In this document: positions 1,412 through 51,809 of the stretch, piece by piece
How the letters are laid out: each line of letters opens with the position of its first letter
Numbering within the stretch: the first letter of the stretch is position 1
Virus record (IMG/VR): IMGVR_UViG_3300029705_006930
DNA length: 64,000 nucleotides
Reading direction: 5' to 3' (one strand)
From: a virus
Lineage: Duplodnaviria > Heunggongvirae > Uroviricota > Caudoviricetes
The notes under the pieces: model-generated
The model's database searches: none
Seen by the model: only the letters and a program-made list of their open reading frames with translations
Told to the model about the DNA's origin: nothing
Position numbers and translations under genes: made by a program

Positions 1412-1455
1412 CGCATCTGCAATTTGTTTAATTTCGTGTATTTATATCGCCCCCT

Positions 1456-12850: not shown

Positions 12851-13078
12851 ATGCTTAGAATTTATGTTGGTACAAACACAAACCGTACAGCTTACACACT
12901 TTCCCCAGAAACAACCCTCAGAGCAGCTTTTGAAACTGCAGGCGTGAACTATGAAATGGGTACCGCAACTCTTGATGGTTCCACACTTCAGCCGGGCGAC
13001 CTTGACAAGTCTTTTGCAGACTTCGGCATCACAGGTACAGCTTACCTCCTGAGCATTGTTAAAGCAAACAACGCTTAA
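12851..13078 (+). CDS. Ubiquitin-like beta-grasp protein (ThiS/MoaD-like), non-GG C-terminus
   Basis: 75 aa; MLRIYVG...TLDGSTLQPGD...AYLLSIV pattern resembles ThiS/MoaD. First gene of a Ubl/JAB/E1 operon. Confidence 0.45.
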   Translation: MLRIYVGTNTNRTAYTLSPETTLRAAFETAGVNYEMGTATLDGSTLQPGDLDKSFADFGITGTAYLLSIVKANNA

Positions 13079-13139
13079 TTGATTTTACCTATAGGGGCGG
13101 GAGCAATCCTGCCCCAATCTTTAAAGAGAGGAGCTCAGT

Positions 13140-14540
13140 ATGGCACACACATTTAAAAAATGGATGATAAAAGCCATTCCATATGACAACTTGTTTGACA
13201 TATCGGTGGACTTTGAGAATCCATTCCCGACCGATAATCGTCGCGATGCTACACTCGCGGCTGCATTTCACTGTTTGATTAAAGACAGAATTCCAGAGGG
13301 GGTTAATCGCATTGTAGTGCGTGATATCCACTCATATGACTGCAACGTGAGAGACATTTTTGACTATTATGAGGTTGAAAATGGTTTCAAAAGTTGTATT
13401 TTTTACTACGCAGATTGGGACAATGTGAATCTGCAGAGCAAAATTACATTGCCAAATGAATGGGAAGCTCAGGAAATTGCAAGCAAATTTACTGGATGTT
13501 ATGTTACAAATCACGTATCAAAACAATTGATGGTTATCTTTATTCCGAGCAACTATAACCTTGAAACTTGGCATAGACTTGGTGCATTGTTACCAAAATA
13601 TCCAGTGCTCGAGGATATGTGGGCAGCAAAACCACTTACCGAAGATGAACTCAAGATGTTGAAATCACTGTCAACAGACGGTGTAGATTTTGACACATAT
13701 ATAAAAGCGTGGATTGCGACACTCGACCTGCGCACATCCGCAATCAAAAAAATGTTCAACAAATTCATTATTGATAACATCGAGGAACAGATACGCAATG
13801 CCGAAGATAGACGTAGAAGCCTTGAAAACAATATCACAGACTATGCTGCGAGACTGGCAAGGCTGTATAGCGACCTTGACGGTGTTATTGAAATGATAAA
13901 CCGTCTTATGATAGGTGATGACACTGTTGAAGAAAAAGAAAAGAGACTTATCGAATTCTTGTTAACAAACAAAAATGTTGAGCCAATCAGACGTCGCAAT
14001 GACCGCGTTGAATTCAATGTTCACGCAGCAATTGACTGTTGGGATAACGATATGTTCTCATCTTATATCAATAATCACAACAGTTTATTGTATCGCCATA
14101 CAAGCAGATATTCATATGACCAGTTGAAACGTTTTTATGAGCAGGCATTGTTTGCCGGTCGCTTTAAAATTCAGGGCATTGCTAAATTTGAAATTGCAGC
14201 AACAGGTAATGTGAGACCAATTTCAAAAAATGGGCATTGGCCATCAGCTGAAATCGAAAACTGTATTCCAAATACACATGTGGATAAATTCACTTGTATT
14301 GGTAATCACAGACGTATGCTGGATGATGCTGCAAAAATTCGTGACTATGAACAGGCAATTTTGATTGCTATTCAGATTACACAGTCAGTTAACTGGTCGG
14401 ATGGTGCAGTTATGAATCACTTTATTCCTGAAGTGTTGCACTGTGAACGTCCAATTCTTACAGACAGAACAGGCAATACATACACTGTTGCACAGGTAAT
14501 AAGCATACTTGATGCCGAAATAAAGGAGGTTGAAAAATAA
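13140..14540 (+). CDS. Large hypothetical protein, possible E2-like component
   Basis: Sits in the E2 position of a Ubl-E2-DUB-E1 order. C-terminal PNTHVDKFTCIGN is weakly HPN-Cys-like. E2 assignment is weak. Confidence 0.5.
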   Translation: MAHTFKKWMIKAIPYDNLFDISVDFENPFPTDNRRDATLAAAFHCLIKDRIPEGVNRIVVRDIHSYDCNVRDIFDYYEVENGFKSCIFYYADWDNVNLQSKITLPNEWEAQEIASKFTGCYVTNHVSKQLMVIFIPSNYNLETWHRLGALLPKYPVLEDMWAAKPLTEDELKMLKSLSTDGVDFDTYIKAWIATLDLRTSAIKKMFNKFIIDNIEEQIRNAEDRRRSLENNITDYAARLARLYSDLDGVIEMINRLMIGDDTVEEKEKRLIEFLLTNKNVEPIRRRNDRVEFNVHAAIDCWDNDMFSSYINNHNSLLYRHTSRYSYDQLKRFYEQALFAGRFKIQGIAKFEIAATGNVRPISKNGHWPSAEIENCIPNTHVDKFTCIGNHRRMLDDAAKIRDYEQAILIAIQITQSVNWSDGAVMNHFIPEVLHCERPILTDRTGNTYTVAQVISILDAEIKEVEK

Positions 14541-15475
14541 TGAAACCAATAAGATTGACCGATGATGTAAAAGCGGCTATTCTTGATAAATTTGCAAAAC
14601 AGCTGAGCACGGTTGTACGTGCTTCAACTATTACATTCACACATACGCCAACAGTGGTAAGCACACCGTTAGGCAAAGATGAAAAAGTGCTGATTACTTA
14701 TACAGCAGAAGCATTCCGCAAGCAGCAGATGCTTATTCAGAGTTTTGACAGTGAAGTGGCTTGGCACGGTGTTGTTGAACGTGAAGATGCAAAGCATTTT
14801 ATTATTACAGATATCGTAGTATATCCCCAGACTGTTACCGGCTCAACTGTTGAGATGGACGAAGACAAATATGCTCTTTGGACAATTCAGTTCGGTCGTG
14901 AACACGGCGAAGAAACATTCCAGAAACTGCGTATGCAGGGACATAGCCACGTGAATATGGAATGTTTTGCAAGTGGTACAGACTCTAAACACCAGGATGA
15001 CATCTTGGCAACAACTGACCCAAATGGGTTCTATATTTTCATTATTGCCAATAAAAAAGGCAAATTCTGGAGCACTATTTTCGACCTCGAAGCAAATGTT
15101 CAGTATGAAAATGCTGACATCGAAATCGAGTATGAGGAAGATGAGTACGATGAATTTGTAAGTGCAGCAGAAAGTGTGGTTGTAAAAAAGACTTATACAC
15201 CACCTTACAACTATGGCAATGGCTATCACAACAACGGAGCAGGGTATTCATACGGGGCAAGCGCTTATTCTCAGAAGCCACCTCAGACTCCGCCTATGCC
15301 AGTGCTTCCGACAAATACACAGCCAAAAACAAGCACAAACGAAACAAACACAAAGGCAAACACAAACACAAAAAAGGACGATAAATCCATTGAAGAAGAT
15401 ATCACCAATCTTATTCAGATGTCATTGAACGATATGGAATGGGATGAAGTTGGTGGATGGACAAGCAAAATGTAA
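14540..15475 (+). CDS. JAB/JAMM metallopeptidase (deubiquitinase-like)
   Basis: Upstream Glu (VVERED) then GHSHVNMECFASGTD, i.e. HxHx7Sx2D. Low-complexity Y/G/N/T-rich C-terminal tail. Confidence 0.75.
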   Translation: MKPIRLTDDVKAAILDKFAKQLSTVVRASTITFTHTPTVVSTPLGKDEKVLITYTAEAFRKQQMLIQSFDSEVAWHGVVEREDAKHFIITDIVVYPQTVTGSTVEMDEDKYALWTIQFGREHGEETFQKLRMQGHSHVNMECFASGTDSKHQDDILATTDPNGFYIFIIANKKGKFWSTIFDLEANVQYENADIEIEYEEDEYDEFVSAAESVVVKKTYTPPYNYGNGYHNNGAGYSYGASAYSQKPPQTPPMPVLPTNTQPKTSTNETNTKANTNTKKDDKSIEEDITNLIQMSLNDMEWDEVGGWTSKM

Positions 15476-15484
15476 GGAGAAATT

Positions 15485-16174
15485 ATGGACTTAAGTAAAT
15501 CACTTGACTGGTTTAATCCAGACAGCGTTTCGGAACGCATACATATTATCGGATGCGGTAGTGTAGGTAGTACAGTTGTGGAACTGTTGGCAAGATTCGG
15601 TCTTACAAAGTTCACTCTGTATGATTTTGACCTTGTTGAACCTCACAATATCGCAAACCAGATGTTCAGAAAAACGGACATTGGTAAAACAAAAGTTGAA
15701 GCATTGCAGCAGATTGTATGTGAAATCAATCCAGAGGCGGGCAAAGATATTAAACTTGAACCAGAAGGTTGGCACGGACAGCAGTTGTCTGGCTATGTAG
15801 TTCTTGCTGTTGATAGCATTGAATTGCGTAAAAAGATTTGTGAAGGTTTGCAGATGAATATCTTTGTTAAAGCTGTGTTTGATTTCCGTACAAGTTTGCT
15901 CAACGCACAGCATTATGCAGCCAATTGGCAGGACAAAAAACATCGTGATGACCTCATTGCAACAATGCAGTTCACCGATGAAGAAGCTGCGGCTGAAAAC
16001 CCAGTATCAGCGTGTGGTGTAACACTTGGTGTCGCACCAACAGTAAGACTGATATGCACACTAGGCGTAAGCAATATGATGAACTTTTTCAGAGAAAAGA
16101 AATTGAAAAAAGTTGTATTGGCAGACGCATTTAATTTTGATGCTGACCCTATGGTATTACCTATGGGTCAATAA
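15485..16174 (+). CDS. E1-like ThiF/MoeB-family adenylyltransferase
   Basis: IIGCGSVGSTVVELLARFGL...LYDFDLVEPHNIANQMF, a Rossmann GxGxxG plus D.D.VE.sN..RQ signature. Confidence 0.75.
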   Translation: MDLSKSLDWFNPDSVSERIHIIGCGSVGSTVVELLARFGLTKFTLYDFDLVEPHNIANQMFRKTDIGKTKVEALQQIVCEINPEAGKDIKLEPEGWHGQQLSGYVVLAVDSIELRKKICEGLQMNIFVKAVFDFRTSLLNAQHYAANWQDKKHRDDLIATMQFTDEEAAAENPVSACGVTLGVAPTVRLICTLGVSNMMNFFREKKLKKVVLADAFNFDADPMVLPMGQ

Positions 16175-16199: not shown

Positions 16200-16500
16200 T
16201 GAATATTGCACATTGTATGGCAAGCTTTTGCTGTTAGCAGAAGTAAAGAAATGGTAGAGAACATAGAGGCAGGCGCTTAAGGAGCACGCTGAGGTGATTC
16301 CTAAGTACTGCAGCTTCTTGCATCCGACGAGCTCTGAAAAGGTAGGTTTAACAGGAGGATTGGATTACTTACAAGTGAAATTAACCAGTTCAAACCGTAA
16401 AGCTCATCTGAAATTAACGATAAATCCCAGATTTGCATCTCTTTTATCCGGGAATGAAGGGCTTAAAACTATAGCTAGACCATAAACAAGATAGGGAGGA
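16200..16500 (+). ncRNA. Candidate structured non-coding RNA upstream of the RT (contains repeat copy 1)
   Basis: 320 nt gap with repeat TTGCTGTTAGCAGaagtaaaGAAATGGTAGAGAA. An alternative GTG-start 63 aa ORF (16294..16485) with RBS AAGGAG cannot be excluded. Confidence 0.25.
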
Positions 16501-16504
16501 CATT

Positions 16505-17860
16505 ATGGTTTATATCACATATCCAGCACCTAACAAATTTCATCAGATTACATTTGAAGAAATGATGTCGGGCAATGTTAATACAGATAAATTAAGAATT
16601 TTAGGCGGACATAATACGCTTACTTTGCATCTTAACGATGTACCTGCAAACTTAAAAGGTCAGACTTCTGTACGCAAAATGATTGCAGATTTGCAGTATT
16701 TTGTAGGTGTATATTATGACACACTGATGCCACAGATAAAAGAATTTGAGAAGCTTTCAGATGCTCAGCGTCGCAGCGTCAAACAGCGTGACAAGATTGA
16801 AAATTATTTTGAACAGATGGGCGCAACTGCAAATGATGAAGACTTGCAGAAAATCACTGAACAGGTAGATGCGCTGCAGTGTGAAGTTGCAGAACAGCAG
16901 TATAAATATGCTTACTATACATTCGATTTGCGCAAAAGTTCAGCGCCGGAACACATTCCATTGTGGCGACTGCCAAAAGAATACAGACGTACAATCAATG
17001 CTCCGAACATACATCTTAAAAATGCGCTATATGAACTTAAAGAACTGTTTGAAAATATGATGATACGTACATATCATACTGCATCATTTGCGTATGTTAA
17101 ACATCGTGGAACTTTGGATGCTGTAAAACGTCATCAGAGCTGGGAAAGCAAATGGTTTGCAAAGTTTGACTTTTCAGATTTCTTTGGTAGCACAACAATT
17201 GACTTTGTTATGCAACAGTTCTCTCAAATATATCCGTTTAATATGATTTGTGCATATAAAGATGGTAAAGAAGCTCTTTATAAAGCATTGCAGTTGTGTT
17301 TTTTGGACGGTGGACTTCCACAGGGCACACCTATTAGTCCTCTCATCACAAACATAATGATGATACCATTTGACCACGCAATGTCAAAAGCTCTTAAAGA
17401 ATTTAAATATCCAAACAAACACGGTAGTGAACGTTTTGTGTATACAAGATATGCTGATGACCTGCTTATCAGTTGCCGTGTGGATTTTAAAGTGGAAATT
17501 ATTCAGGCATTTATTCTGGAAACTTTAAAATCAATGAATGCGCCTTTTAGCCTTAACGTTAAGAAAACTCGTTACGGTTCTAGTGCAGGTAGCAACTGGA
17601 ATCTTGGGGTGATGCTTAACAAAGACAATAAAATTACAATCGGTGCAGAAAACAAGCGCAGACTTAAAGCTTCTTTGAATTCATTTATCCTTGATATGAA
17701 GAATGAAAAACCTTGGGATATTTCTATGGTGTATAGACTCAGAGGTCAGATTTCTTATTATCGTAATGTGGAAAGGGAAGCAACAAATAACATCATTGCA
17801 GCGATGAACACAAAATATGGTGTTGATGCAGAAGCAATGATGAAATCTATTATAAGTTAA
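16505..17860 (+). CDS. Reverse transcriptase, retron/Abi-like
   Basis: RT motifs FAYVKHRGTLDAV, KFDFSDFFGS, LPQGTPISPLITN, YTRYADDLLIS (YADD). Motif-7 region NLGVMLNKDNKITIGAENKRR aligns to the retron VTGLVIS...IGRE block. Confidence 0.8.
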   Translation: MVYITYPAPNKFHQITFEEMMSGNVNTDKLRILGGHNTLTLHLNDVPANLKGQTSVRKMIADLQYFVGVYYDTLMPQIKEFEKLSDAQRRSVKQRDKIENYFEQMGATANDEDLQKITEQVDALQCEVAEQQYKYAYYTFDLRKSSAPEHIPLWRLPKEYRRTINAPNIHLKNALYELKELFENMMIRTYHTASFAYVKHRGTLDAVKRHQSWESKWFAKFDFSDFFGSTTIDFVMQQFSQIYPFNMICAYKDGKEALYKALQLCFLDGGLPQGTPISPLITNIMMIPFDHAMSKALKEFKYPNKHGSERFVYTRYADDLLISCRVDFKVEIIQAFILETLKSMNAPFSLNVKKTRYGSSAGSNWNLGVMLNKDNKITIGAENKRRLKASLNSFILDMKNEKPWDISMVYRLRGQISYYRNVEREATNNIIAAMNTKYGVDAEAMMKSIIS

Positions 17861-18797
17861 TTTAATTTTTATATATTGAATATCACAGTCATTGTGAAGT
17901 GTTGATGTTATCGGCACTAACGAAATGGTAAGAAAGTATGGCAGGAAGGCCCGCAGGTTCATGATGAAGACGCGTGCGAGCTTACAGCTCCAGCATAAAA
18001 ATTAGAAATGCTGGTACAATGAAAAGGAAGAAAATCATGAACGAAAGCCATACTTTCCAACATCCACAAAACCACGAATTTAAAACGCTTCATTACTCCG
18101 CGACCCTCCGCCAGGAGGGCCCGGGCGCGGTAAAGCGTCAAATAAATAATTGAGAATATATAAAAAAACTTTATTGAATATCTTTAAATTTGTACATAAA
18201 TTTAAGAACTGTTGCTGTTAGCAGCAGTGTCAAACGAACAGGATAAATAAAGAAATACAAATTTCTTTATTTAAATAACTTCTTAGCGTCGTAAGGCGCG
18301 ATGCTCCGACATCGCTCATGACGACGCCAAAGTTATTGAGAATAAAGTTAAAAAAATAATAAGAAAAATAAACAGTGTATATTTGCATAGCAAAGCTATT
18401 GATGTAATCAGTAGTACAGAAATGGTAGGAAAGATTACACGGGACGGTGTCGCCGGTGAGGAGCCACCTCCTTTGCAAACCCCTGCAATATTTCTAAAAC
18501 CTAATTAAAACTATGTCCGAATGGTCAAACATAACAGGAGGACTGAGAAACATCACCTGAAGGATACCAACTGAACCCCCAGTTCAGATGACACGACAGC
18601 TGGAGAAATCTAGACCCATGGGATGGTGATTCAACATTAAATTACAATTCAGACTGTTTATTGCTTTATAGTTTTTGCCAAGCTACGAAAACTCCAAATA
18701 ATGAGTAGTGTGTGACATAAAAGCCAAGCCTCGTCAACTCCCTTTCGGGGCTTGGTAAAGACTATAAAACAAACAATTTAAGTAAAGGAGAATATAT
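17861..18797 (+). ncRNA. About 940 nt structured non-coding region downstream of the RT with three further repeat copies
   Basis: Repeats at 17902–17939, 18212–18224, 18399–18436. GC-rich nested hairpins read at 18097–18140, 18287–18327, 18565–18590 and 18723–18760. Confidence 0.3.
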
Positions 18798-24908: not shown

Positions 24909-25262
24909 ATGCAAGAGGTTAGATTTTTACTTGATTTTTATGTGCCTTTTAACAGGTGGAAAATAGCTTTGATGAATGTTCCCGAAGAACAATATAAAAT
25001 CAATCCAGGTTTAGGAATATCTCTTACACAGTTTGCATATGATGAACACTTGTCCGAAGGTGGTAATCATTATGAATTTGCGTGTCAGGTGCCAAAGCGA
25101 TTTTATAGATTGCTTAGATTACATCCGGATTGGGAGCCTGTAGATGCTGTAGAACTTGCGAGAATGCTTGAAGGTTATATTAAAGCTGATTGGTCTATTG
25201 AATATAATCCTCCAATTATTACATATGAAACAAGCTTTGAGGAACTGATGGGAGGAGTTTAG
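24909..25262 (+). CDS. Array family member 1, C-terminal motif ITYETSFEELMGGV
   Basis: RBS AAAGGGAG; shared C-terminal Y-E-x-x-F-E-E-L-M-G-G motif. Confidence 0.6.
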   Translation: MQEVRFLLDFYVPFNRWKIALMNVPEEQYKINPGLGISLTQFAYDEHLSEGGNHYEFACQVPKRFYRLLRLHPDWEPVDAVELARMLEGYIKADWSIEYNPPIITYETSFEELMGGV

Positions 25263-25263
25263 T

Positions 25264-25590
25264 ATGGAAGAAATGAGTTCAACCAGACTAGCCATTACTC
25301 CGCTGATTGACAAAACACGATATGGATGCGGAGTTGTAGGTGCAGGATATCCATGCGAAATTACATCAGATGCCGTTGAATTTATTAGTAGCATAGCAAC
25401 AGAAACATATACGACGGGAACAGGCCGTGTGGATTATACAATATCACATCCAGCATCCATATATAATGATGTCGTCTCTGAAGGAAGATGTTTGACACAA
25501 GCAGTGTTAGATTATATTTTTAATCATGTATTAATCCAAGGTATTGATTATGAAATGAATTTTGAAGAACTTATGAAAGGAGAGCCATAA
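25264..25590 (+). CDS. Array family member 2 (..IDYEMNFEELMKGEP)
   Basis: RBS GGAGGAG; shared C-terminal motif. Confidence 0.6.
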   Translation: MEEMSSTRLAITPLIDKTRYGCGVVGAGYPCEITSDAVEFISSIATETYTTGTGRVDYTISHPASIYNDVVSEGRCLTQAVLDYIFNHVLIQGIDYEMNFEELMKGEP

Positions 25591-26057
25591 TGGAGATACA
25601 GAATTTTTGTGAATATTTTAATATTCCAACCAACGCAGATATCTCTGTACAACGTGCTGATGACCCATTTGAACGAATGCAGATAGTAGCAGAATATTTT
25701 TCAGGTGGTGGTTGTAAATGTGAACATATAATTAATTTCGATATGGCTCTTTTATATGCTCAACCAAATGAGGCAGTTTACTCTATTTTATATATTGCTA
25801 ATAATATGATACTGAATATTCCAAAACAGTTATTTGATGCAATATTTATTGAATCAAATAATTTTGAGACTGCATCAAATATACCACATTATATAGCTGT
25901 ATTCTCACAATCATCAATGAATTTAGCACAACGAAAAACACAAGTTGAGGAATTGATAAAAAAACATCAGGAGATATTGCATAATCATCATATACCAGAA
26001 ATTATATATGACTTGGATTTTGATAACTTAATGATAGGAGGTAATGCATCATGTTAG
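25590..26057 (+). CDS. Array family member 3 (..IIYDLDFDNLMIGGNASC)
   Basis: RBS AAAGGAGAG; N-terminal FCEYFNIP resembles the DFYEHF N-termini of other members. Confidence 0.6.
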   Translation: MEIQNFCEYFNIPTNADISVQRADDPFERMQIVAEYFSGGGCKCEHIINFDMALLYAQPNEAVYSILYIANNMILNIPKQLFDAIFIESNNFETASNIPHYIAVFSQSSMNLAQRKTQVEELIKKHQEILHNHHIPEIIYDLDFDNLMIGGNASC

Positions 26058-26473
26058 ATTTTTACGAGCATTTTGGATTATCTGAAGATGTTCGGGTAAC
26101 AGCTGAATCTGTAGATGATGAACTACGTATAGTTTGTTGGGATAATGAGACAAAATATATTGTTCCGTTTGATATGATTATCTTGCCAGAGTGGTGGGGT
26201 GATGAAAAAAATGCATATATCCTGACTAAAAATGATACATTTATTCGTATGCCTCATGGTTTGGCTGTAAATGTTTTTGAAAGAGCGCGTGGTGGTTATT
26301 GGCATTATGACAATGATAAATGGGTAGCTGTGTCCTCATGTTATTTAGGTTATGAAAGAATTCAGAAGAAAGCATCTATTTTGCTGCGAAATATAAATAA
26401 TATTTTAATGGAAGAAGATAGTCATAGAAGCTCAATATCTTATGATGTTGAGTTTGATGCATTATTTAAATAA
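26051..26473 (+). CDS. Array family member 4 (..ISYDVEFDALFK)
   Basis: RBS AGGAGG; N-terminus MLDFYEHFGL. Confidence 0.6.
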   Translation: MLDFYEHFGLSEDVRVTAESVDDELRIVCWDNETKYIVPFDMIILPEWWGDEKNAYILTKNDTFIRMPHGLAVNVFERARGGYWHYDNDKWVAVSSCYLGYERIQKKASILLRNINNILMEEDSHRSSISYDVEFDALFK

Positions 26474-26483
26474 AGGAGAACAA

Positions 26484-26813
26484 ATGAATATAACATTTTA
26501 TATACATAGTACAGGGCGTCAATATTTTTTAACTGCGCTGGGCGGTGCAGCCGTGCGTATCAGTCAAAATATGTATACAAGATTACAAAGACATTCTGTG
26601 GATGCAGGCGATGAAATGGTTAACCGAAGAGTTCGCACCAAACGTATTTTAAATATTGAAGATTTAAATTTCGAGAACAATTATAACTACAATACATATC
26701 GTTTGTATGATTTCTTAGAAAGAAATTACAGGTCATGGCGTAACTACACCACAATCACCTCAGAAATTGTTTATGACGAAAATGCTCTATCTTGGGACGC
26801 TCTTTTTCAGTAA
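26484..26813 (+). CDS. Array family member 5 (divergent tail ..IVYDENALSWDALFQ)
   Basis: RBS AAAGGAGAA. Confidence 0.55.
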   Translation: MNITFYIHSTGRQYFLTALGGAAVRISQNMYTRLQRHSVDAGDEMVNRRVRTKRILNIEDLNFENNYNYNTYRLYDFLERNYRSWRNYTTITSEIVYDENALSWDALFQ

Positions 26814-26825
26814 AGGAGATAATAT

Positions 26826-27185
26826 ATGAACGAACATAAACGGATTTTACCAGAAGAGGGTGCCTATGAGGAACGATTTGCTGTTTATCCAAACCCTAAA
26901 GAACCAACTACATATGTGATGGATGTAAGGTCGCTGACAAGATACAATCCAGCGAGCAGTTTGGTTATTGATGATGCAGTTTTGGAATCACTCAGTATAT
27001 TGTCTTACCACAGTTTTGAAGCTGTACGTCCAGATACAACAGTATATTGCATGTTTATAAAAGATGCAGAAAAAGACAATTTTTTAAAAGACCCTGTGCA
27101 TTGGTTGCTACAAACACAAGTTATGAATACTCCAAGAATGGAATATGAGTTGGATTTTGACACACTGATAGGAGTGATAAAATGA
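26826..27185 (+). CDS. Array family member 6 (..MEYELDFDTLIGVIK)
   Basis: RBS AAAGGAG. Confidence 0.6.
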   Translation: MNEHKRILPEEGAYEERFAVYPNPKEPTTYVMDVRSLTRYNPASSLVIDDAVLESLSILSYHSFEAVRPDTTVYCMFIKDAEKDNFLKDPVHWLLQTQVMNTPRMEYELDFDTLIGVIK

Positions 27186-27646
27186 GAAACTTTGAAGAAG
27201 TTTTCCCAATTGATTCTAATATTGAGTGTTATATAGCGCATCAAACATTGGTGAATTTGAAGTTGGCAATAGCAAATAAATATGACACATCACAAATAAT
27301 GACGACAATAGCTTTTGATTATGTGATACGTATATTCCCGGCGTCCCATCTTGATAACCCAATTACAATTATTAGTATAAATGGGCGCAAATATTGGTTA
27401 TCTTATAAGTTATATACCAAAATATTTATGCGCAGCCGCAGAAATCAGCGTGTGTTGTTTAATGAAGACAATCAACAAGAGGATATTGGACTGGTTATTA
27501 TGATTAGCAATAGTCCGGTGCATTTAGACAACGTATCGGATATTGTAACGGAAATTATTGAGCAAAAATGGTCAGGGCCCATAGGCATAATGAATGAGTT
27601 ACAGCAAATTGAATATATAGGGAGTTTTGAAGATTTATTAAAGTAA
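27182..27646 (+). CDS. Array family member 7 (..IEYIGSFEDLLK)
   Basis: RBS AGGAG. Confidence 0.6.
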   Translation: MRNFEEVFPIDSNIECYIAHQTLVNLKLAIANKYDTSQIMTTIAFDYVIRIFPASHLDNPITIISINGRKYWLSYKLYTKIFMRSRRNQRVLFNEDNQQEDIGLVIMISNSPVHLDNVSDIVTEIIEQKWSGPIGIMNELQQIEYIGSFEDLLK

Positions 27647-27658
27647 GGAGATGATTTT

Positions 27659-28144
27659 ATGGCACACATAGATTTAGGCAATGAATATTATACACATGTT
27701 ATCTCGGAAATCAGAATTACGCCTCCAGAATCTGTAAATGATATGTTGATTCCAAGCAGAGCAATTCATTGTAACCCTTATACAGACAACGTATGGGCAC
27801 AAATCAGATTTCACTTACATAATCAATTATGTCACCGTGGCTATATATATTGGATTGAAAATGCAATATCTAAACCAGATGGTATGGTGTATTTAAATTT
27901 GTCTCCATATCCTGTATTAGGTCGTGATAAGCAATGTTGTATGAGTAAAGAATTGTTTGAAATGCTTCTTGAATATGCAAGAAATATCAAGCACTATGGT
28001 AGCTTACACAGTACTTGTGATTGGCAAAGCAGGGAATATACAATGCTGAAAGTGCGCGAGACAATTTCTGCAATGCTTAAAAAAATAGAATATGCAATGG
28101 ATTTTGATGAGCTCTTAGGAGGTCAGAAATATGACAGCGATTGA
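27659..28144 (+). CDS. Array family member 8 (..IEYAMDFDELLGGQKYDSD)
   Basis: RBS AAGGAG. Confidence 0.6.
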   Translation: MAHIDLGNEYYTHVISEIRITPPESVNDMLIPSRAIHCNPYTDNVWAQIRFHLHNQLCHRGYIYWIENAISKPDGMVYLNLSPYPVLGRDKQCCMSKELFEMLLEYARNIKHYGSLHSTCDWQSREYTMLKVRETISAMLKKIEYAMDFDELLGGQKYDSD

Positions 28145-28499
28145 TTTATTAACACAAAAGGATGTACCTAAAGGAGCATATCGAGTATTGATAGTATGTG
28201 ATGCCACTATAGGTTTTGTGTGTAAGCATTATGCATTGATAGAAAATGAAAACAAAACTTGTCAATATATTATCGAGTGTCAAATACAAGGGGATTTGGA
28301 AAAGTTTTATAGTGCCACATATCAAGGCTTGAAGATGGAATTCTATCGGGTTACTACAGTTGAACAGCCTGCAATAACCGAGGATTCACTTGAAATTCAG
28401 AGGATGATAGATTTCTTATTTCAGGTATATCACATAAATTTAAAGTACGAAAATATGTGTTATGAAATTGATTTTGACCAGTTGATGGGAGGAATATAA
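28131..28499 (+). CDS. Array family member 9 (..MCYEIDFDQLMGGI)
   Basis: RBS GGAGG. Confidence 0.6.
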   Translation: MTAIDLLTQKDVPKGAYRVLIVCDATIGFVCKHYALIENENKTCQYIIECQIQGDLEKFYSATYQGLKMEFYRVTTVEQPAITEDSLEIQRMIDFLFQVYHINLKYENMCYEIDFDQLMGGI

Positions 28500-28951
28500 T
28501 GTTTGCAACAATGGTAAATGGTGAAAAACATCTGATAACGCAAGTTGATTGGAGGCCTATATTTAATGATGATGGAAAATGTATTGAAAGAGAAATTTCT
28601 ATAAAGTTCGACTATGATGAATCATTGCGAGCAGCAAAATATAGAGTTGGCTGGTTTGTTGATGAGCATGTAAATAACGAAATACAAGTACATTTAAAAT
28701 TGCGTAATGATAAAACAATTCCAGTTATGATTCCTACGATACTCGCAGAAGCAATGGTGGAATATCAACGCAAATTGCAAAAAGAAGGGTTCTGTGGTTT
28801 GGCTACAGGAGCTCCAGAGTGGTTGTTGACATGGTATTCTGAACAACAACTGAAATTTGGAACTGAAAATGTATTTCATTTTAATAGAACAAATGAAATT
28901 AAGACAATGACTTATGAAGTGGATTTATTTGAGGAGTTGATAAACAGTTGA
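28499..28951 (+). CDS. Array family member 10 (..MTYEVDLFEELINS)
   Basis: RBS GGGAGG. Confidence 0.6.
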   Translation: MFATMVNGEKHLITQVDWRPIFNDDGKCIEREISIKFDYDESLRAAKYRVGWFVDEHVNNEIQVHLKLRNDKTIPVMIPTILAEAMVEYQRKLQKEGFCGLATGAPEWLLTWYSEQQLKFGTENVFHFNRTNEIKTMTYEVDLFEELINS

Positions 28952-29238
28952 ACAAACAAGATGAAGGATATGCCACACTGGGTGATATGACTGCAATATT
29001 TGCAACCATAAATGACCGGACAGACTATTTGGAACATCTGGCGAATTCATCAGCAGCCCGTATTATGGATATAGAGTCAAAAAGTGATTGTTATATAACT
29101 CAATCTTCGCTATATTGTATGCGCGATGACCTCTTACAGCAGATTAGTGAGCTTCGAGAGACAGTGAACATTTTGCTGGACAAGTATAATGCACTAAACC
29201 CACCTATCAGCTTTGATGAAATGATGGAAGGAGAATAA
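28948..29238 (+). CDS. Array family member 11 (..PPISFDEMMEGE), TTG start
   Basis: RBS GAGGAG 11 nt upstream of the TTG. Confidence 0.5.
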   Translation: MNKQDEGYATLGDMTAIFATINDRTDYLEHLANSSAARIMDIESKSDCYITQSSLYCMRDDLLQQISELRETVNILLDKYNALNPPISFDEMMEGE

Positions 29239-29239
29239 T

Positions 29240-29530
29240 ATGCATTTTAATGAACATCTTCGTAGGGTATGGGAGCGAACTACTGCTGCAATAACTACAT
29301 CTGACCATACGGAAAATACAGTGACTTCGTATGTTACAACAAGAAGTGTTCCTGATTATTGTACTACAAGCTGGACAGCACAACCATCATATAAACAATG
29401 GGTACATAAAGATGATTTGGATGCATTAAGATATTCCCTTGGCTGGGCAACGTCAAATCCGGCAGTAAAAGAGCCAGTATCACCGAAATACGATATGGAG
29501 TTTGAAGATTTGTTCAAGGAGGAGACATAA
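29240..29530 (+). CDS. Array family member 12 (..PKYDMEFEDLFKEET)
   Basis: RBS GGAAGGAG. Confidence 0.6.
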   Translation: MHFNEHLRRVWERTTAAITTSDHTENTVTSYVTTRSVPDYCTTSWTAQPSYKQWVHKDDLDALRYSLGWATSNPAVKEPVSPKYDMEFEDLFKEET

Positions 29531-29763
29531 TGCCGCCGAGACCAACATTTTTTGATGAGTTTACAGAAAATATAGTGCACAACACAATGCGAGAATTATC
29601 TGAATATGCAGCCCACTCCACGTTATCAATGGAAGACTCATTAGCTGATTTGAAAGAAACGTTGAAACGACTAAACATAAGTATTAATTTTGTAGAAACA
29701 GAATCTTTGACAGAAATTACATATGAGGCAGAATTTGAAGATTTAATGAAAGGAGATAAGTAA
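29530..29763 (+). CDS. Array family member 13 (..ITYEAEFEDLMKGDK)
   Basis: RBS AAGGAGGAG. Confidence 0.6.
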   Translation: MPPRPTFFDEFTENIVHNTMRELSEYAAHSTLSMEDSLADLKETLKRLNISINFVETESLTEITYEAEFEDLMKGDK

Positions 29764-40945: not shown

Positions 40946-41006
40946 TTTACTCTTTGTTTTTTCGGCAAAAGCCTGAAAATAAATATTTTAAATGAAAAGG
41001 AGATTT

Positions 41007-42227
41007 ATGGAAACAAGATTTAGTTTTACCGGGAAACTTGTATTCCCAAAAGAAGGCTCTAAACAGCCTTTTGTGGTGTCCTCATCATACAAAGATGCTG
41101 GCTCACAGAAAGAAATTCCATCTTTGCGAATGAATGTCGGCATCCGCGAAGGTGAAGCAAATACTGCTTATATCAGTGCGTTTGGTTCAGCAGATAATGG
41201 CAGAGATATTTTCTCAATAGACAAAGACAATAACAAGATTTCGGTTGCTTGGAAAGACCGATTTGATGCAGATGTTATTGAATCTGTAGCTTCTTATCGT
41301 CTTTATACTGTTGACTTAGCTGACCCAGAACAGAAGGCAGATTTGCGAGAAGCACTTAAAACCGATGACTATTCTATTGTGTCTGAAAAATATGGTGTAA
41401 CAAATAAAGATGGTGCTGATGCAATGCTTAAAGCTTTGCAGTCAGAACGTAAACAGTTTATTACTTCATATGATTTTATTGAATACCTGTCAAAAGAACT
41501 TCCTAAATGCAAACACAAAGTAACTGCAACAGGTCGAGTACGTAAAAGATTTTATAAGGACAGATATTCTGATAATTTTGAAGTTACAGCTATTTATGCT
41601 GTAACCAATGACACAAAAGAAAAACTGAGTCTCACAATGGACTTGTACTACAACAAAGATTGTGTTGATGCAACTGACCTGGAAACTGAAAAACGTATTT
41701 ATGTAAACGGTTATGTGCAGCAGTACATCAATAAAGATGAGGGTAACAAAATGATGCCTCAGCAGGCAATTCTTGATTTGTCAAAGTATCAGCTTGAAAC
41801 AAACCCGCGACATAAACAGTTGGCTGACTATAAACGTAGCTATCTTGAAGGCTTAGACGAAGAATATGTACATATGAATTGGGAAGTGCGCTATCTCAAT
41901 GGTGCAGATGTGGTTGAGTTTACAAAAGATTTGCTTACTCCGGCACAGCTTGCTCAGGTGGAACTTGGCATAAAAAATGTGGAAGATTTTAAACCACGCG
42001 GAAACATTTTTGGTGAACGAGTTGTCGAATATCGTCTTGCTGACCCAAAACTTATGGGTGATTTTGCTGATGGTTTGGTAAAAACAGGTGAGTATCCAAA
42101 TGAATTTGAAGCTCAGATTTATGTTCCTAACAAGACAGTAAATATTGAAGCAGAAGTTGCAAAAGTTACAGCACCTAAAGAAACTAAAAAAGCAATTGAC
42201 GAAATCAGTGAAGAAGACCTCTTTTAA
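41007..42227 (+). CDS. Hypothetical replication-module protein (possible ssDNA-binding/annealing)
   Basis: RBS AAAGGAG before the ATG at codon 6. Position before ATPase, helicase and primase. Function not established. Confidence 0.5.
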   Translation: METRFSFTGKLVFPKEGSKQPFVVSSSYKDAGSQKEIPSLRMNVGIREGEANTAYISAFGSADNGRDIFSIDKDNNKISVAWKDRFDADVIESVASYRLYTVDLADPEQKADLREALKTDDYSIVSEKYGVTNKDGADAMLKALQSERKQFITSYDFIEYLSKELPKCKHKVTATGRVRKRFYKDRYSDNFEVTAIYAVTNDTKEKLSLTMDLYYNKDCVDATDLETEKRIYVNGYVQQYINKDEGNKMMPQQAILDLSKYQLETNPRHKQLADYKRSYLEGLDEEYVHMNWEVRYLNGADVVEFTKDLLTPAQLAQVELGIKNVEDFKPRGNIFGERVVEYRLADPKLMGDFADGLVKTGEYPNEFEAQIYVPNKTVNIEAEVAKVTAPKETKKAIDEISEEDLF

Positions 42228-43397: not shown

Positions 43398-43916
43398 ATG
43401 GCAAGAATAGTTACTTGTGCTGTGACAAAAGAAAAAGGAACCAGTGATGTTTTTTATAAGGCGGACAATGGAAAATGGTATAAGAGCGAATCTGTATTTC
43501 GTCAGTTTCAGAAAGATAAACACACCAGAGAAACTATTCAACGTGTTTTACTTACATATCTTGGATATCAGAAAGGAGAGCCATTTCCGGCTCTCCTCAA
43601 CAAAAAGATAAAAGAATATTCTTTTTATTCACCAGAAGTATTGCTTGAAACAATTACAAAGTGTGAAAAAGACATTACATGGGCATTCAATAATAAAGAA
43701 TTTTCTTCTACACAAGGCAAAATATTTTATATGTTTGCAATCATTTCAAATCATATCAGTGATGTGAATAGACAAAACAATAAAGTGAATGAGCTAAGAA
43801 ATAAACAAACTCAAAAACACATCGATACCATCCAAGAAATGGACATTTCAACCATCGGCACATCAAAAAAAGGTAAAGATATTACGGATTTCTTGGAGGA
43901 TGATTTATGGAATTAG
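43398..43916 (+). CDS. Hypothetical protein
   Basis: ORF track. Confidence 0.5.
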   Translation: MARIVTCAVTKEKGTSDVFYKADNGKWYKSESVFRQFQKDKHTRETIQRVLLTYLGYQKGEPFPALLNKKIKEYSFYSPEVLLETITKCEKDITWAFNNKEFSSTQGKIFYMFAIISNHISDVNRQNNKVNELRNKQTQKHIDTIQEMDISTIGTSKKGKDITDFLEDDLWN

Positions 43917-47234: not shown

Positions 47235-48325
47235 CTGTAAGAGAAAAAGATATAACACTTGAAGAATTACAAAAACAAGGTAAAAAATTATATTCAATTT
47301 CAAAAGCAGACACAATTGACCAGTGTCATTATCAGGCATATCTTGCATACATCGTACACAGTAAATCGGTTCCTAATATTTATTCATTAATGGGTTCTAA
47401 AATTCATGACACTTTAGAAGGCATTATGAATCAGAAAAATACAACGGAAGATTTGATTGTAGCTCTAGATAATGAGCTTGAAGATATGCAAATGCTTGGA
47501 TTTGATTTTCCTCGCGATAGCAGAGGAAAAACATCTATCCGTGATAATTGGATAAAAAATATGCGTCATTTCTGTAGCAATTTTATACCGCCACGAGGCG
47601 AGTTTGAAACTGAACAGTTATTTATATATCCACTCACAAAAGACAGATATGTACGAGGTTATATTGACCTTGTTCAGCATCTGGATAAAGATACAAAAAC
47701 AATTTCAATTTGGGACTGGAAAACTTCCTCACAATTTTCTCAGGAAACATTATTGGAACACGGCAGACAGCTTGTTATATATGCCATTGCAAAAGAAGCA
47801 GAAGGCTATACCGTCAAAGACGTAGGCTGGATAATGCTTAAATATGTTGAAATTGTTTTTCAAGGCAAATTGCGCAGAAATTCTAAAGAAAAAACTAAGA
47901 TTACCAAAGTTTGTGACCGTTATAAGATAGTACAAACATTGCAGCCATATTTAGAGCAAGAGCTGATAGAAGCTGGCTATGATGATATAGATATTGAAAT
48001 GTTTATGATAGATGCACTGGAAAATAATTCATTGGATAAGCTTCCAAATGAAATTCGTTCCAAATTTATCATTAAACCATATGTAAGGCGCTATCCGATA
48101 ACCGAAAAGCTCAAACAGGAAACCTTAGATTACATAAATCATCAGGCTGATATTTTTGAGTCATTGCCTAAAAATGATAAATCAGCCTGGAAGCCTAAAG
48201 TGATTGATAAAGGCAATGAATTTTTCTGCAATTATCTTTGTGATTATAAGTCTTCTTGCGAATATATTGCCAGATATAATCTTGAAAAACAGTTGGCAAA
48301 AACTTCAGATGAAGAATTATTTTAG
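47222..48325 (+). CDS. PD-(D/E)XK nuclease, Cas4/RecB-like with C-terminal Cys cluster
   Basis: YIDLVQ...IWDWKTSS (D..E/D.K) and CNYLCDYKSSCEY. Confidence 0.6.
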   Translation: MARIAVREKDITLEELQKQGKKLYSISKADTIDQCHYQAYLAYIVHSKSVPNIYSLMGSKIHDTLEGIMNQKNTTEDLIVALDNELEDMQMLGFDFPRDSRGKTSIRDNWIKNMRHFCSNFIPPRGEFETEQLFIYPLTKDRYVRGYIDLVQHLDKDTKTISIWDWKTSSQFSQETLLEHGRQLVIYAIAKEAEGYTVKDVGWIMLKYVEIVFQGKLRRNSKEKTKITKVCDRYKIVQTLQPYLEQELIEAGYDDIDIEMFMIDALENNSLDKLPNEIRSKFIIKPYVRRYPITEKLKQETLDYINHQADIFESLPKNDKSAWKPKVIDKGNEFFCNYLCDYKSSCEYIARYNLEKQLAKTSDEELF

Positions 48326-48333: not shown

Positions 48334-49029
48334 ATGCAGAATTATCATTGCCATACCAGTTATAGTAATTTGTTTTCATTTGACTCTATTGCATCTTATG
48401 AAGATTATGCAAAACGAGCTCAGGAACTTGGGCACAAAGTTATTTCATCTGTCGAACACGGCTGGCAATGTAATTATTATGTACCATATGGCATAGCTCA
48501 AAAATATGGATTGAAATTTGTTTTTGGTACAGAAGCATATTGGGTAAAAGACAGGATAGAAAAAGATAATAAGAATAACCATATTATTATTCTTGCAAAA
48601 AATGAAAACGGCAGACAAGCCATAAATGATATTTTAGCAGAAGCTAATATTACAGGTTACTATTATAAACCACGTTTGGATACAAAACTGATTCTGTCTT
48701 TACCCGCCAATGATGTCTTTATTACAACAGCATGTGTTGGATTTTATGGATATGGTTTTGAAGAAAGTGAAAAATTTATTGTTCAGTTGCATAAGCACTT
48801 TAAAAATAATTTTATGCTTGAAATTCAAAATCATAATACTGACAAGCAAAGAGAATTAAATAACCAAATTAAAAAGTGGTCAAAAAAATACAATATTGAA
48901 ATGATTGTTGGGTTAGATAGTCATTATATATATCCAGAGGATGCTGGTCTTCGTGATGAAGCTCTTAAATCAAAAGGCATTATTTATGAAGATGAATCTG
49001 GTTGGTATTCTAAATGCCGTTTAATTTAG
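48334..49029 (+). CDS. DnaE/PolC-type polymerase PHP-domain fragment
   Basis: YHCHTSYSNLFSFDSIAS PHP signature; RBS AGGAGG. Confidence 0.65.
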   Translation: MQNYHCHTSYSNLFSFDSIASYEDYAKRAQELGHKVISSVEHGWQCNYYVPYGIAQKYGLKFVFGTEAYWVKDRIEKDNKNNHIIILAKNENGRQAINDILAEANITGYYYKPRLDTKLILSLPANDVFITTACVGFYGYGFEESEKFIVQLHKHFKNNFMLEIQNHNTDKQRELNNQIKKWSKKYNIEMIVGLDSHYIYPEDAGLRDEALKSKGIIYEDESGWYSKCRLI

Positions 49030-49277: not shown

Positions 49278-51809
49278 ATGGACTATCCCTCTGACAATGA
49301 ATGCATAAAGCGTTTTTTAGACCAAGGAATTTTTACTGAGACAGAAATTCAACGTGCAATGGATAACACAGATATCTGCTTAACATTTGAGAATTTTTAT
49401 TTTAGTAAAGATATTAAACTACCAACTTTATATCCAGACAAGACTCAAGAGGAAAAGAACAAGATATATTCAAGACTGATTACAAAAAAGTTTAAAGAAT
49501 ATATGAAATATGTTCCTGCTGAAGACTATGACAGATATTATCAAGGTGTTAAAGAAGAAGTTCAGGTATATAAAGATACTGGTATGGTTGACTATCCGCT
49601 AATCAACTATGAAGTTATTAAGCGCGGGATTGAATTGGGCGGGGTAATTACAGATAGTGGACGTGGTTCCGCTGTTGGCTTCTTCACAAACACATTGTGT
49701 GGATTCTCAAAAGTTGACCGTTTTACATCTGCAATTCATCTTTATCCAGAGCGCTTTATGTCAACAAGCCGAATATTAGAGTCCGGCTCCCTACCAGATA
49801 TTGACTTTAACGTAGCTAATACTGAGCCTTTTGAACGAGCACAAAAAGAAATACTTGGAGAAGAACATTCATATCCAATGATTGCATTTGGCACTTTGAA
49901 AAAGAAATCTGCTTTTAAGCTTTATGCAAGAGCAAAAGATGTGCCAGCTGCCATTGCAAATGAAATCACAAAACAGATTGAAAAATATGAAAATGATTTA
50001 AAACATGCCGATGATGATGACAGGCGCGATATAAATATCTATGACTATGTAGATGAACAGTATCATGACCATTTGAGACAGAGTGAATCATATTGGGGTA
50101 TCATTTCTGACCGCAAAAAAGCTCCATCGGCACATCTCTTATATCAAGGCAATATTCGTAAAGAAATTGGGCTCATTAAATGTAAGAGTGAAAGTACCAA
50201 GAAGGAATGCATCACTTGTGTTATTGATGGTGCAGTCGCAGAAGAATATAAATTTTTGAAAAATGACCTGCTCACTGTAAATGTGGTGGATATTATTGAC
50301 CGTGTTTTTAAACGTATTGGCATTGAGCATTTTAATGTAAATACATTGTTGGGACTTATTAAAAATGATAAACCGACTTGGGATATTTATGCTAAAGGTT
50401 TGACTATAGGTGTTAACCAATGTGAAAAAGCCTCAACAACAAAAAAAGCAATGCGATATAAACCACGAAACCCATCTGAGCTCTCGGCATTTATAGCAGG
50501 TATTCGTCCAGGCTTTAAATCAATGTATCCGATTTTTGAAAGTAGACAGCCGTTCTCATATGGAGTTGCTACACTGGATAATCTGCTGATTACCGAAGAA
50601 CTTCCGATTCCCTTTATGATTTTCCAGGAACAGACAATGAAAGTCCTTAACTATGCTGGATTTCCAATGGACGAATGCTATGGTCTTATTAAAGCTATCA
50701 GTAAAAAGAAACCAGAAAAGGTAAAAGCAATCAAAGATGATTTTATTAAAAATTTCTGCAAACAAATTCAAGAAGATAATGGACTTGATTTTGAAATTGC
50801 ACAAAATAACAGTGAAAAAGTATGGACAGTAGTAAATGATAACTCAGGTTATGCATTTAACAGTTCTCATGCATACTGTATGGCGTTGGATAGCTTATAT
50901 TGTGCTTATCTCAAATCTCACTATCCTTATGAATTTTATGAGGTACTTCTCACATTTTATTCCAACAAAGGCAACAAAGATAAAGTTGCTGAACTGAAAA
51001 GAGAAATGCTCCAAGGTTTTGGTATCAGAGAAGGCAAGTTTAAGTTTGGCAATGATAATCGCAGCTTTAAAGCCGACAAAGAAAACGGTGTTATATATTC
51101 ATCACTATTATCATTAAAAAATATGAACCAGAAATGTTCTGAGGACTTATATGCTTTATCACAAAAAAAACAATATACAAACTTTTTTACACTGCTCAAA
51201 GATATTAAACAACTTAAGAGTCTGAAATCTGACCAGCTTAATATTTTGATTAATATTGGATATTTTGATGATTTTGGTACAGTCCCACAGATTCAGACAT
51301 TTGTAAAAGCATATGACGACCTTTATGGACGAGCTCAATTTTCCAAAGATAATCTGGATGCTAATTATGCAGCACTTATTGCTGCTGACAGTACGCAGAC
51401 TGAAAAACAATATCGCAACTTTGATTATGAAAATGCATTGCATAAATTGTGGATGCAAATTCCGCCAATTAAATTAGGTTTGCATCAGAAAATTAAAAAC
51501 GAACTTGAATATTTTGGATACATACAAACAATCATACCAAAGCTCTCAGATGAATATGTAGTCGTAACTGATAAGATTGACAAATATTCGAAACTGACGG
51601 TCACGGTTTATGTATTACAGACTGGAGCAATTCATACTTATCGAATGCGAAGCAGAGTTGCAGAGCAATGCGGAACAATTAATGTGGGCGATATTATTAA
51701 ACTGATGAAGTTTAGCGAAGAAAAGAAATGGACAAAAAATGTCAACGGAGATTGGGTACACACAGATGAAACCGAAACACTCATTAAAAAATATGCACTG
51801 ACAAGATGA
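49278..51809 (+). CDS. DNA polymerase III alpha (DnaE-type) catalytic core
   Basis: Palm motif GRGSAVGFF; 843 aa, which with the 231 aa PHP ORF gives about 1074 aa. Confidence 0.7.
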   Translation: MDYPSDNECIKRFLDQGIFTETEIQRAMDNTDICLTFENFYFSKDIKLPTLYPDKTQEEKNKIYSRLITKKFKEYMKYVPAEDYDRYYQGVKEEVQVYKDTGMVDYPLINYEVIKRGIELGGVITDSGRGSAVGFFTNTLCGFSKVDRFTSAIHLYPERFMSTSRILESGSLPDIDFNVANTEPFERAQKEILGEEHSYPMIAFGTLKKKSAFKLYARAKDVPAAIANEITKQIEKYENDLKHADDDDRRDINIYDYVDEQYHDHLRQSESYWGIISDRKKAPSAHLLYQGNIRKEIGLIKCKSESTKKECITCVIDGAVAEEYKFLKNDLLTVNVVDIIDRVFKRIGIEHFNVNTLLGLIKNDKPTWDIYAKGLTIGVNQCEKASTTKKAMRYKPRNPSELSAFIAGIRPGFKSMYPIFESRQPFSYGVATLDNLLITEELPIPFMIFQEQTMKVLNYAGFPMDECYGLIKAISKKKPEKVKAIKDDFIKNFCKQIQEDNGLDFEIAQNNSEKVWTVVNDNSGYAFNSSHAYCMALDSLYCAYLKSHYPYEFYEVLLTFYSNKGNKDKVAELKREMLQGFGIREGKFKFGNDNRSFKADKENGVIYSSLLSLKNMNQKCSEDLYALSQKKQYTNFFTLLKDIKQLKSLKSDQLNILINIGYFDDFGTVPQIQTFVKAYDDLYGRAQFSKDNLDANYAALIAADSTQTEKQYRNFDYENALHKLWMQIPPIKLGLHQKIKNELEYFGYIQTIIPKLSDEYVVVTDKIDKYSKLTVTVYVLQTGAIHTYRMRSRVAEQCGTINVGDIIKLMKFSEEKKWTKNVNGDWVHTDETETLIKKYALTR

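Follow-up and report, generated by a model that had tools for sequence, protein, structure and literature searches.

A common C-terminal peptide on a tandem array of 13 small genes in a prophage of an uncultured Firmicute

Why should a series of adjacent small genes, whose products have for the most part little in common, end in much the same peptide? The question is raised by a 64,000-nucleotide stretch of viral DNA (Caudoviricetes, IMG/VR record IMGVR_UViG_3300029705_006930), here called 'the window' over its whole length. Between positions 24909 and 29763, on the + strand, it carries 13 small open reading frames (ORFs), designated g1 to g13, which encode 77 to 161 amino acids (aa) and abut or overlap by a few bases. 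A first-pass annotation of the letters had described them as 13 consecutive genes with ribosome-binding sites (RBSs), sharing a conserved C-terminal tail. All the ORFs are present as described, and a strong Shine-Dalgarno sequence was found ahead of every one of them (ORF list, check of the RBSs). Wherever they cover the array, the source contig and five contigs from other samples (L001-L006) are 100% identical.

The common C-terminal peptide is real and statistically unambiguous. Its core of 11 residues can be written [IM]-x-Y-[ED]-x-[DENS]-F-[ED]-x-L-[MLIF]. The regular expression Y[EDAI]x[DENS]x{0,1}F[ED]x[LM][MLIF] matched 11 of the 13 array proteins, each time at 8 residues or less from the stop codon, and matched nothing outside the array in the six-frame translation of the window. 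The tails of the two other proteins, g5 (IVYDENALSWDALFQ) and g11 (PPISFDEMMEGE), are degenerate copies. With a profile of the core, ten members scored 12.9 to 18.4 bits and g10 scored 5.4, compared to 4.4 bits for the best non-array ORF in the six frames of the window. At the DNA level, the pattern TAYGANNNNRRNTTYGANNNNYT occurred eight times, always inside the array, while its mean number in shuffled sequences was 0.04 and none of 100 shuffles reached eight. One tail-like candidate, the segment 'ITFEEMMSG' at the N-terminus of a reverse transcriptase encoded upstream, was discarded, as it was not within the 32 best matches to the tail profile. The array and its members are as follows.

24909..29763, + strand: whole array, a co-directional run of 13 tightly packed or overlapping genes (ORF list, RBS check)
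24909..25262, + strand: g1, 117 aa; tail core ITYETSFEELM at 25218-25250, 16.5 bits; the residues after the core, GGV, are the g2 RBS read in frame
25264..25590, + strand: g2, 108 aa; tail core IDYEMNFEELM at 25543-25575, 16.0 bits; followed by KGEP, where AAAGGAG is the g3 RBS
25590..26057, + strand: g3, 155 aa; tail core IIYDLDFDNLM at 26001-26033; N-terminal NFCEYF; paralogue of g4
26051..26473, + strand: g4, 140 aa; tail core ISYDVEFDALF at 26435-26467; N-terminal DFYEHF
26484..26813, + strand: g5, 109 aa from the ATG that bears an RBS (an ATG upstream, at 26442, would give 123 aa); degenerate tail IVYDENALSWDALF at 26766-26807, with an insertion of three residues
26826..27185, + strand: g6, 119 aa; tail core MEYELDFDTLI at 27138-27170, 14.0 bits
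27182..27646, + strand: g7, 154 aa; tail core IEYIGSFEDLL at 27608-27640; N-terminal NFEEVF
27659..28144, + strand: g8, 161 aa; tail core IEYAMDFDELL at 28085-28117, which arose by recombination between two tails found in the sister haplotype
28100..28110, + strand: crossover site in g8, the D-F-D codons GATTTTGATGA, where the 13- and 14-cassette haplotypes switch register
28131..28499, + strand: g9, 122 aa; tail core MCYEIDFDQLM at 28455-28487, 18.4 bits; followed by GGI, where GGGAGGA is the g10 RBS
28499..28951, + strand: g10, 150 aa; tail MTYEVDLFEELI at 28907-28942, in which one residue is inserted, 5.4 bits
28948..29238, + strand: g11, 96 aa from a TTG start; degenerate tail PPISFDEMM at 29194-29226, without the Tyr; its N-terminus is kept as coding sequence in a sister contig, L099
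29240..29530, + strand: g12, 96 aa, with a Thr/Ser-rich body; tail PKYDMEFEDLF at 29483-29515, 16.7 bits
29530..29763, + strand: g13, 77 aa; tail ITYEAEFEDLM at 29716-29748, 17.5 bits; followed by KGDK, where the phosphoesterase gene downstream has its RBS, AAAGGAG

The first-pass annotation had counted a terminal (K/G)G as part of the motif, and this part was not upheld. The G-G, K-G or E-G that follows the core is the GGAGG or AAGGAG of the next gene's RBS read in frame: ATG-GGA-GGA gives M-G-G, AAA-GGA-GAG gives K-G-E and GAA-GGA-GAA gives E-G-E, and where a stop codon comes ahead of the next RBS the protein ends simply in K or Q. One to eight residues follow the motif, their number being set by the RBS of the next gene. 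GG is found in 4 of the 13 tails, and five have no Gly at all. The terminal glycines are therefore a consequence of gene packing, the next RBS overlapping the reading frame.

This bears directly on the idea that the array encodes ubiquitin-like modifiers or substrates, whose L-M-G-G ends would be exposed by a JAB peptidase and adenylated by a ThiF-like E1 encoded 9-10 kb upstream. A ThiF/E1 gene (15485-16174) does adjoin a gene with a JAMM-type H-x-H-x7-S-x2-D motif (14540-15475), and four tails do read GG. However, because the glycines are RBS-encoded, the diglycine reading fails; the residues after the motif also vary in number and kind, and a medium-confidence model of g4 does not look like a beta-grasp. 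The ubiquitin-like explanation is thus largely refuted, and we give it almost no credence.

At which level is the tail itself selected? By codon position, it holds 13.4, 13.4 and 5.9 bits of information at positions 1, 2 and 3, respectively. Its Leu residues are written by five codons (CTG, CTT, CTC, TTA and TTG), Glu and Asp replace one another, and the DNA copies are only 62-73% identical to one another. The codon-position pattern and the variety of codons argue for long-term selection on the peptide rather than on a nucleic-acid signal, and with such a low DNA identity, recent gene conversion cannot account for the sharing.

A signal in the nucleic acid had nevertheless to be considered, in which the 3' ends would act as a translation-initiation enhancer, a coupling element, a promoter or a recombination site, the peptide being a by-product. 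Relative to the start codon of the next gene, the motif is at -45 to -12; the final residues are RBS-encoded, codon usage is AU- and purine-rich, and recombination does happen in tail DNA (see below). Against this, conservation of the motif follows a strict period of three bases, its third positions being nearly free. The motif always stands in the frame of the upstream gene, whereas its distance to the next ATG varies between about 20 and 33 nucleotides and is not a multiple of three. The RNAs at the junctions have no common fold (z-scores between -2.3 and +1.3, averaging close to 0), a consensus scan found no enrichment of promoter-like or terminator-like sites in the array, and Rfam gave no match there. 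Explanations of the tail by RNA structure, promoters or Rfam families were rejected on these grounds, and we consider a nucleotide-level signal very improbable. Since the array genes abut or overlap, the intergenic space is moreover too small for regulatory signals.

What do the proteins share apart from the tail? Once stripped of it, most bodies had no detectable similarity to one another by BLASTP, phmmer, leave-one-out profiles (with shuffled and natural decoys) or hhalign, the latter comparisons resting on small alignments. An exception was the pair g3/g4 (hhalign E 4.6e-5). A sister-strain allele of g3, named h3, matched g4 with E about 1e-6 on bodies alone and is an intermediate between g3 and g4; g3, h3 and g4 could be aligned end to end. 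By alignment, g7 is collinear with g3 and g4, its N-terminal start included, with 15 invariant columns, and is probably a further paralogue; taken alone, it was not significant by profile search. A weaker exception was the helix preceding the tail in g1 and g9 (hhalign E 0.0086). The 'largely unrelated bodies' of the first-pass annotation therefore hold for most members, and not for g3/g4 and probably g7, which are true paralogues. The DFYEHF-like N-terminal start that it reported in several members was also found, as [DN]F-x-E-x-F, in g1, g3, g4 and g7, and loosely in g13.

Alignment of the bodies demonstrably makes part of the array a product of tandem duplication, and common descent explains at least part of the tail sharing. 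This opens the way to a second explanation, in which all 13 genes form a single diverged paralogue family that arose by tandem duplication, the C-terminus being its slowest-evolving part, a structural or self-association element with no external partner (for instance, a terminal strand plus helix cap, or a dimer interface). The end-to-end alignment of g3, h3 and g4, the collinearity of g7 and the pre-tail helix common to g1 and g9 all speak for it, as does the order of elements, which is the same in every member: an amphipathic helix, a linker of 5-12 residues, then the tail. Tandem duplication is also the simplest origin for an array. On the other hand, leave-one-out profiles and hhalign found no body similarity for the other members, sizes range from 77 to 161 aa, and the bodies appear by eye to be of different types: beta-rich (g4, g9), helical (g11, g13) or Thr/Ser-rich (g12). 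A model of g4 also goes against a structural role of the tail. It was obtained with AlphaFold2 (AF2) from the g3/g4/g7 alignment of three sequences, with a mean predicted local distance difference test score (pLDDT) of 66 and a predicted template modelling score (pTM) of 0.58. The predicted body consists of a multi-strand sheet (pLDDT about 80) and a long C-terminal helix, whereas the tail (residues 123-140, pLDDT below 50) appears unpacked from it. PH-like proteins, with a seven-strand beta-sandwich that has a C-terminal helix as its cap, were among the folds considered for comparison. A single-sequence AlphaFold model of g9 only reached a pLDDT of 35. On balance, the single paralogue family seems to us rather unlikely as a full explanation.

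Information on how the array changes came from a sister haplotype, found in two independent samples (L099 and L232) at 89-96% DNA identity, which has 14 cassettes instead of 13. The extra cassette, h9, encodes 139 aa with a novel body and the tail IVYDVEFDELLGGKKYDSD; it follows the g8 orthologue, h8, whose tail is IEYEIDFDDLSIM. The g8 tail of the window combines parts of both. In the blastn comparison with L099, the matching segments join at window positions 28100-28110, and in a three-way DNA alignment the window g8 tracks h8 up to GATTTTGATGA and h9 from there on. Because the switch of partner takes place inside GATTTTGATGA, which encodes D-F-D, we conclude that one cassette was gained or lost by tail-tail recombination, in frame. 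The recombined g8 retains both a tail and the RBS of the next gene. Tails therefore also serve as in-frame cassette junctions, one such event having been observed.

Other differences between haplotypes affect the bodies. The g3 allele of L099 and L100 is about 50% identical to that of the window: its centre (window 25700-25975) is replaced, with a synonymous divergence (dS) of about 1, and its ends are conserved. In the 14-cassette haplotype, g1 is disrupted (L099:9800-10192, L232:3966-4320), and only its 42 C-terminal residues, including the tail, are still in frame behind a different start. Between strains, all tail-core substitutions preserve the class of residue (L>F, A>V, E>D, I>M, M>I, D>E, L>F). 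The pooled ratio of non-synonymous to synonymous substitution rates (dN/dS) was 0.37 for the array, compared to 0.08 for flanking genes. The array genes are thus real genes under relaxed or partly diversifying selection. As to the diversifying family of the first-pass annotation, the array does evolve faster than its neighbors, but with a dN/dS below 1, positive diversifying selection is not demonstrated.

The recombination event invites comparison with the promoter-early stem-loop (PeSL) cassettes of the hyperplastic regions of T4-type phages, in which short conserved sequences at the borders of ORFans are recombination points for the gain, loss or swap of whole genes (PMC2839356; PMC4122927). 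The likeness lies in the h9 insertion or deletion, a single observed event whose breakpoint falls inside the conserved tail sequence. There are also differences: PeSL are non-coding promoter-terminator stem-loop units, whereas the junction in the array is made of coding sequence and an RBS, its recombination preserves the reading frame, and it shows neither promoter/terminator enrichment nor a common fold. Integron gene cassettes are another point of comparison. An attC inverted repeat follows each of them, a feature that the array does not have, local inverted repeats being absent from its gene junctions. We conclude that the locus is a phage hyperplastic accessory array with a common terminal tag, for which cassette recombination within the tail is the new evidence.

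What, then, might the tail be for? Its hydrophobic residues are at -2, 0, +2, +4, +7 and +8 relative to the Tyr, a spacing that would suit an amphipathic stretch in extended form and, after it, a helix of one turn, in the style of many hub-binding peptides. The explanation that we favor, tentatively and with slightly less than even confidence, is a portable docking peptide carried by a fast-evolving accessory array, the tail doubling as a recombination joint. The array is a lineage-specific set of fast-evolving small accessory genes in the early/DNA-metabolism arm of the phage. Each protein ends in a portable acidic-amphipathic peptide, with an extended [IM]-x-Y-x-h-x-F part and then a one-turn [ED]-x-L-[ML] helix, by which all members may dock onto one common partner, while the variable bodies would supply different activities or targets. 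The 30-45 nucleotides of the tail, together with the RBS of the next gene, would form the cassette junction, and tail-tail recombination would add or remove whole cassettes in frame.

The first-pass annotation had proposed a docking, sorting, packaging or degron signal for a single partner, in a pattern that it expected of an anti-defence or host-takeover family. The motif side of this proposal is well founded: the tail is real, restricted to the array, selected as a protein, borne by differing bodies and unpacked in the g4 model. The partner side is conjectural, and we infer that the tail binds a partner at all, as we do the partner's identity and the role in host takeover or anti-defence; a packaging or degron role is equally conjectural.

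Several points weigh against the docking peptide. Docking itself is a matter of inference. The paralogy of g3, g4 and probably g7 means that the tail could be a simple inheritance, with bodies diverged beyond recognition. Structural support consists of one medium-confidence model predicted from three sequences, that of g4, the g9 model being unusable. When close strains are compared, the tail core does not have a significantly lower share of substitutions than the bodies (4/89 versus 63/909, P = 0.5). Finally, as the tail is known from a single uncultured lineage, independent lineages give no comparative support.

This last point follows from extensive searches. Pfam and PHROGs gave no match for any array member, and among 50,697 GenBank phage records neither the 13 proteins nor their DNA had a counterpart by megablast or tblastn, even at E <= 1. 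Against 5.8 billion proteins, the sole relative of g8 was a variant of itself, 93% identical. When 1.84 billion representative proteins were searched with a profile of the tail and its preceding helix, there were eight matches, all of them strain variants of array members; only matches with E <= 0.001 were listed, so that weaker tail-only matches may exist elsewhere. A search with the tail alignment gave no match at E <= 10. Relatives of the flanking cREC_REC and phosphoesterase genes, on viral and metagenome contigs, did not have the tail. Scans with a degenerate DNA pattern yielded scattered single matches in unrelated proteins and no arrays in viral collections; in genome collections there were likewise no arrays among the matches listed, only scattered unrelated single proteins. 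Looking for the tail in relatives, as the first-pass annotation had suggested, thus recovered only this lineage's own variants, and as far as these searches see, the tail family is limited to one uncultured lineage.

An observation of a related kind was made on two other viral contigs, each with a cREC_REC homologue. Downstream of this gene, neighboring small genes have common C-termini (L011:10330-10973 and L017:12316-12923), which are acidic-hydrophobic and unlike the array tail: ...DAVxIDSV[LI]xIL and ...SD[FI]LxxLEE. Tail sharing among adjacent small genes may recur in this phage group.

Could the partner be a capsid? In T4, the capsid-targeting sequence occupies about 10 residues at the N-terminus, and the prohead protease cuts it off. 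Encapsulins, whose shell has the HK97 fold, take up cargo by means of C-terminal targeting peptides. By similar means, the array tail could send diverse proteins into the procapsid for co-injection, perhaps with trimming by a prohead protease. The closest parallel is with the T-even internal proteins, which are diverse small phage proteins encoded at hypervariable, polymorphic loci, with a short conserved targeting peptide and a function in counter-defence (PMC3012670). The array follows the same logic as IPI, IPII, IPIII and their variants, in that its bodies are diverse and only a short terminal peptide is common. However, the array peptide is C-terminal (1-8 residues from the end), and acidic, and no sequence resemblance to theirs or to other known targeting peptides was found; the signal of T4, by contrast, stands at the N-terminus, with a protease site at its end. 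The array lies between the reverse transcriptase and replication genes, away from head genes, and no capsid, scaffold, prohead protease or other structural gene was identified within the window. Since the T-even signal is N-terminal, and packaging of the array proteins and the destination of the tail are hypothetical, this is an analogy and not a membership, and we consider capsid targeting unlikely.

Known hub-binding peptides offer another comparison with the docking peptide. The C-terminal tip D-D-D-I-P-F of SSB (E. coli SSB ends M-D-F-D-D-D-I-P-F), the clamp-binding motif Q-L-[SD]-L-F and the tails that bind T4 gp45 are all, like the array tail, short acidic-hydrophobic linear motifs on the flexible C-termini of unrelated proteins. 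In the known cases, they serve to reach one hub. The M-D-F-D-E-L-L of g8 resembles the end of E. coli SSB, and it is resemblance only: the SSB tip requires a free terminal carboxylate, whereas array tails carry 1-8 variable residues after L-[MLIF]. As for the sliding-clamp motif (Q-L-[SD]-L-F or Q-L-x-L-x-L), all tails have D, S, N or E ahead of the F, and never Q. Judged by these residues, both resemblances look superficial. In L042, L031 and related viral contigs, which are outside the lineage of the window, a gene of about 200 aa that looks beta-clamp-like by eye is directly preceded by a small ORF ending YDMDFDELMDYIGDGDPAEILG. A clamp-binding lead from this YDMDFDELM... family was dropped, because the motif has no Gln and the window no identified clamp; nor was an SSB identified there. 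A separate observation concerns three proteins of the replication module (40992-42227, 43398-43916 and 47390-48325), whose extreme C-termini are SEEDLF, FLEDDLWN and SDEELF, and look like replisome hub-binding tails. Two of the three, of 411 aa and 172 aa, had no informative family match.

A more far-reaching possibility is that the tail is an address tag for a phage machine, with the variable bodies as adaptors or payloads. It would either load the 13-14 proteins into the capsid, as a new kind of C-terminal targeting peptide, for co-injection as an anti-defence arsenal, or recruit different host proteins to one phage enzyme such as a protease or the E1/JAB pair. In-frame recombination at the tag would then gain or lose specificities. 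The enzyme-recruitment version would be a prokaryotic-virus counterpart of the poxvirus ankyrin/PRANC (F-box-like) adaptor families, multigene families in which variable target-binding bodies carry a conserved C-terminal module for one cellular machine. The arrangement of variable bodies and a conserved C-terminal module is indeed alike. PRANC, however, is a folded domain of about 40-50 residues in eukaryotic viruses, whereas the array has an 11-residue prophage peptide and a machine that is hypothetical. We regard the address tag as a long shot.

If the tail is a docking tag, the array would represent compact, modular phage weaponry, in which one address peptide is reused on many unrelated payloads and, being a recombination joint too, lets payloads be swapped in frame while translation of the next gene is preserved. 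It would also provide a portable peptide to direct cargo to a phage or host hub, and a sequence rule for finding hidden families, namely common termini in arrays of ORFans. If the tail is merely the slowest-evolving part of a set of paralogues, the locus would be an ordinary hyperplastic region of an uncultured prophage.

That the element is a prophage was deduced from its borders. The window ends with a serine recombinase, past which ordinary bacterial genes follow on the source contig (window 62420-64000, L233:12573-20498), and the element is therefore integrated; a free jumbo phage of 208 kb was ruled out for the same reason. The host genes directly after the recombinase encode a phosphotransferase system (PTS) EIIC component, a peptidase M28, an acetyltransferase, a pseudouridine synthase, a MerR protein and a RecD2-like helicase. 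The DNA polymerase III (Pol III) alpha subunit of the prophage is 36-39% identical to those of Geobacillus E3, Bacillus Sophrita and pW2, and Lactococcus WRP3, which are large Firmicute siphoviruses. The element is a large temperate phage of an uncultured Firmicute. At the left end of the window (110-3442), on the opposite strand, are a tyrosine recombinase and a ligase-like gene, in a region of higher GC content.

The array belongs to a long co-directional run in the early/DNA-metabolism arm. Upstream of it are sigma-like and helix-turn-helix genes, the E1/JAB cluster, a retron-type reverse transcriptase and the cREC_REC gene; downstream are the phosphoesterase gene, many small ORFs and a module for replication and nucleotide metabolism. 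The E1/JAB genes are part of a possible ubiquitin-like conjugation cluster (12851-16174), which includes a 75-aa ORF and a 466-aa ORF without a match. Its 311-aa ORF (14540-15475) has a JAMM-type H-S-H-x7-S-G-T-D motif by eye and no match in Pfam, and its 229-aa ThiF/E1 protein (15485-16174) matches the E1 part of CBASS-type E1-E2 models. The reverse transcriptase (16505-17860; PADLOC RT_II-A, E 2e-41) has an N-terminal extension of 150 residues and is flanked by a 43-nucleotide direct repeat present three times (16222, 17896 and 18393). The region concerned (16222-18435) has no Rfam match, nor the template/variable repeat pair expected of a diversity-generating retroelement.

Further downstream, the PHP domain (48334-49029) is encoded apart from Pol III alpha (49278-51809). 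The large subunit of ribonucleotide reductase (56730-60246) is present as two ORFs, 56730-58085 and 59278-60246, the latter with the TSCPD domain. They are split by an HNH endonuclease gene (58424-59182), which suggests an intron or a split gene.

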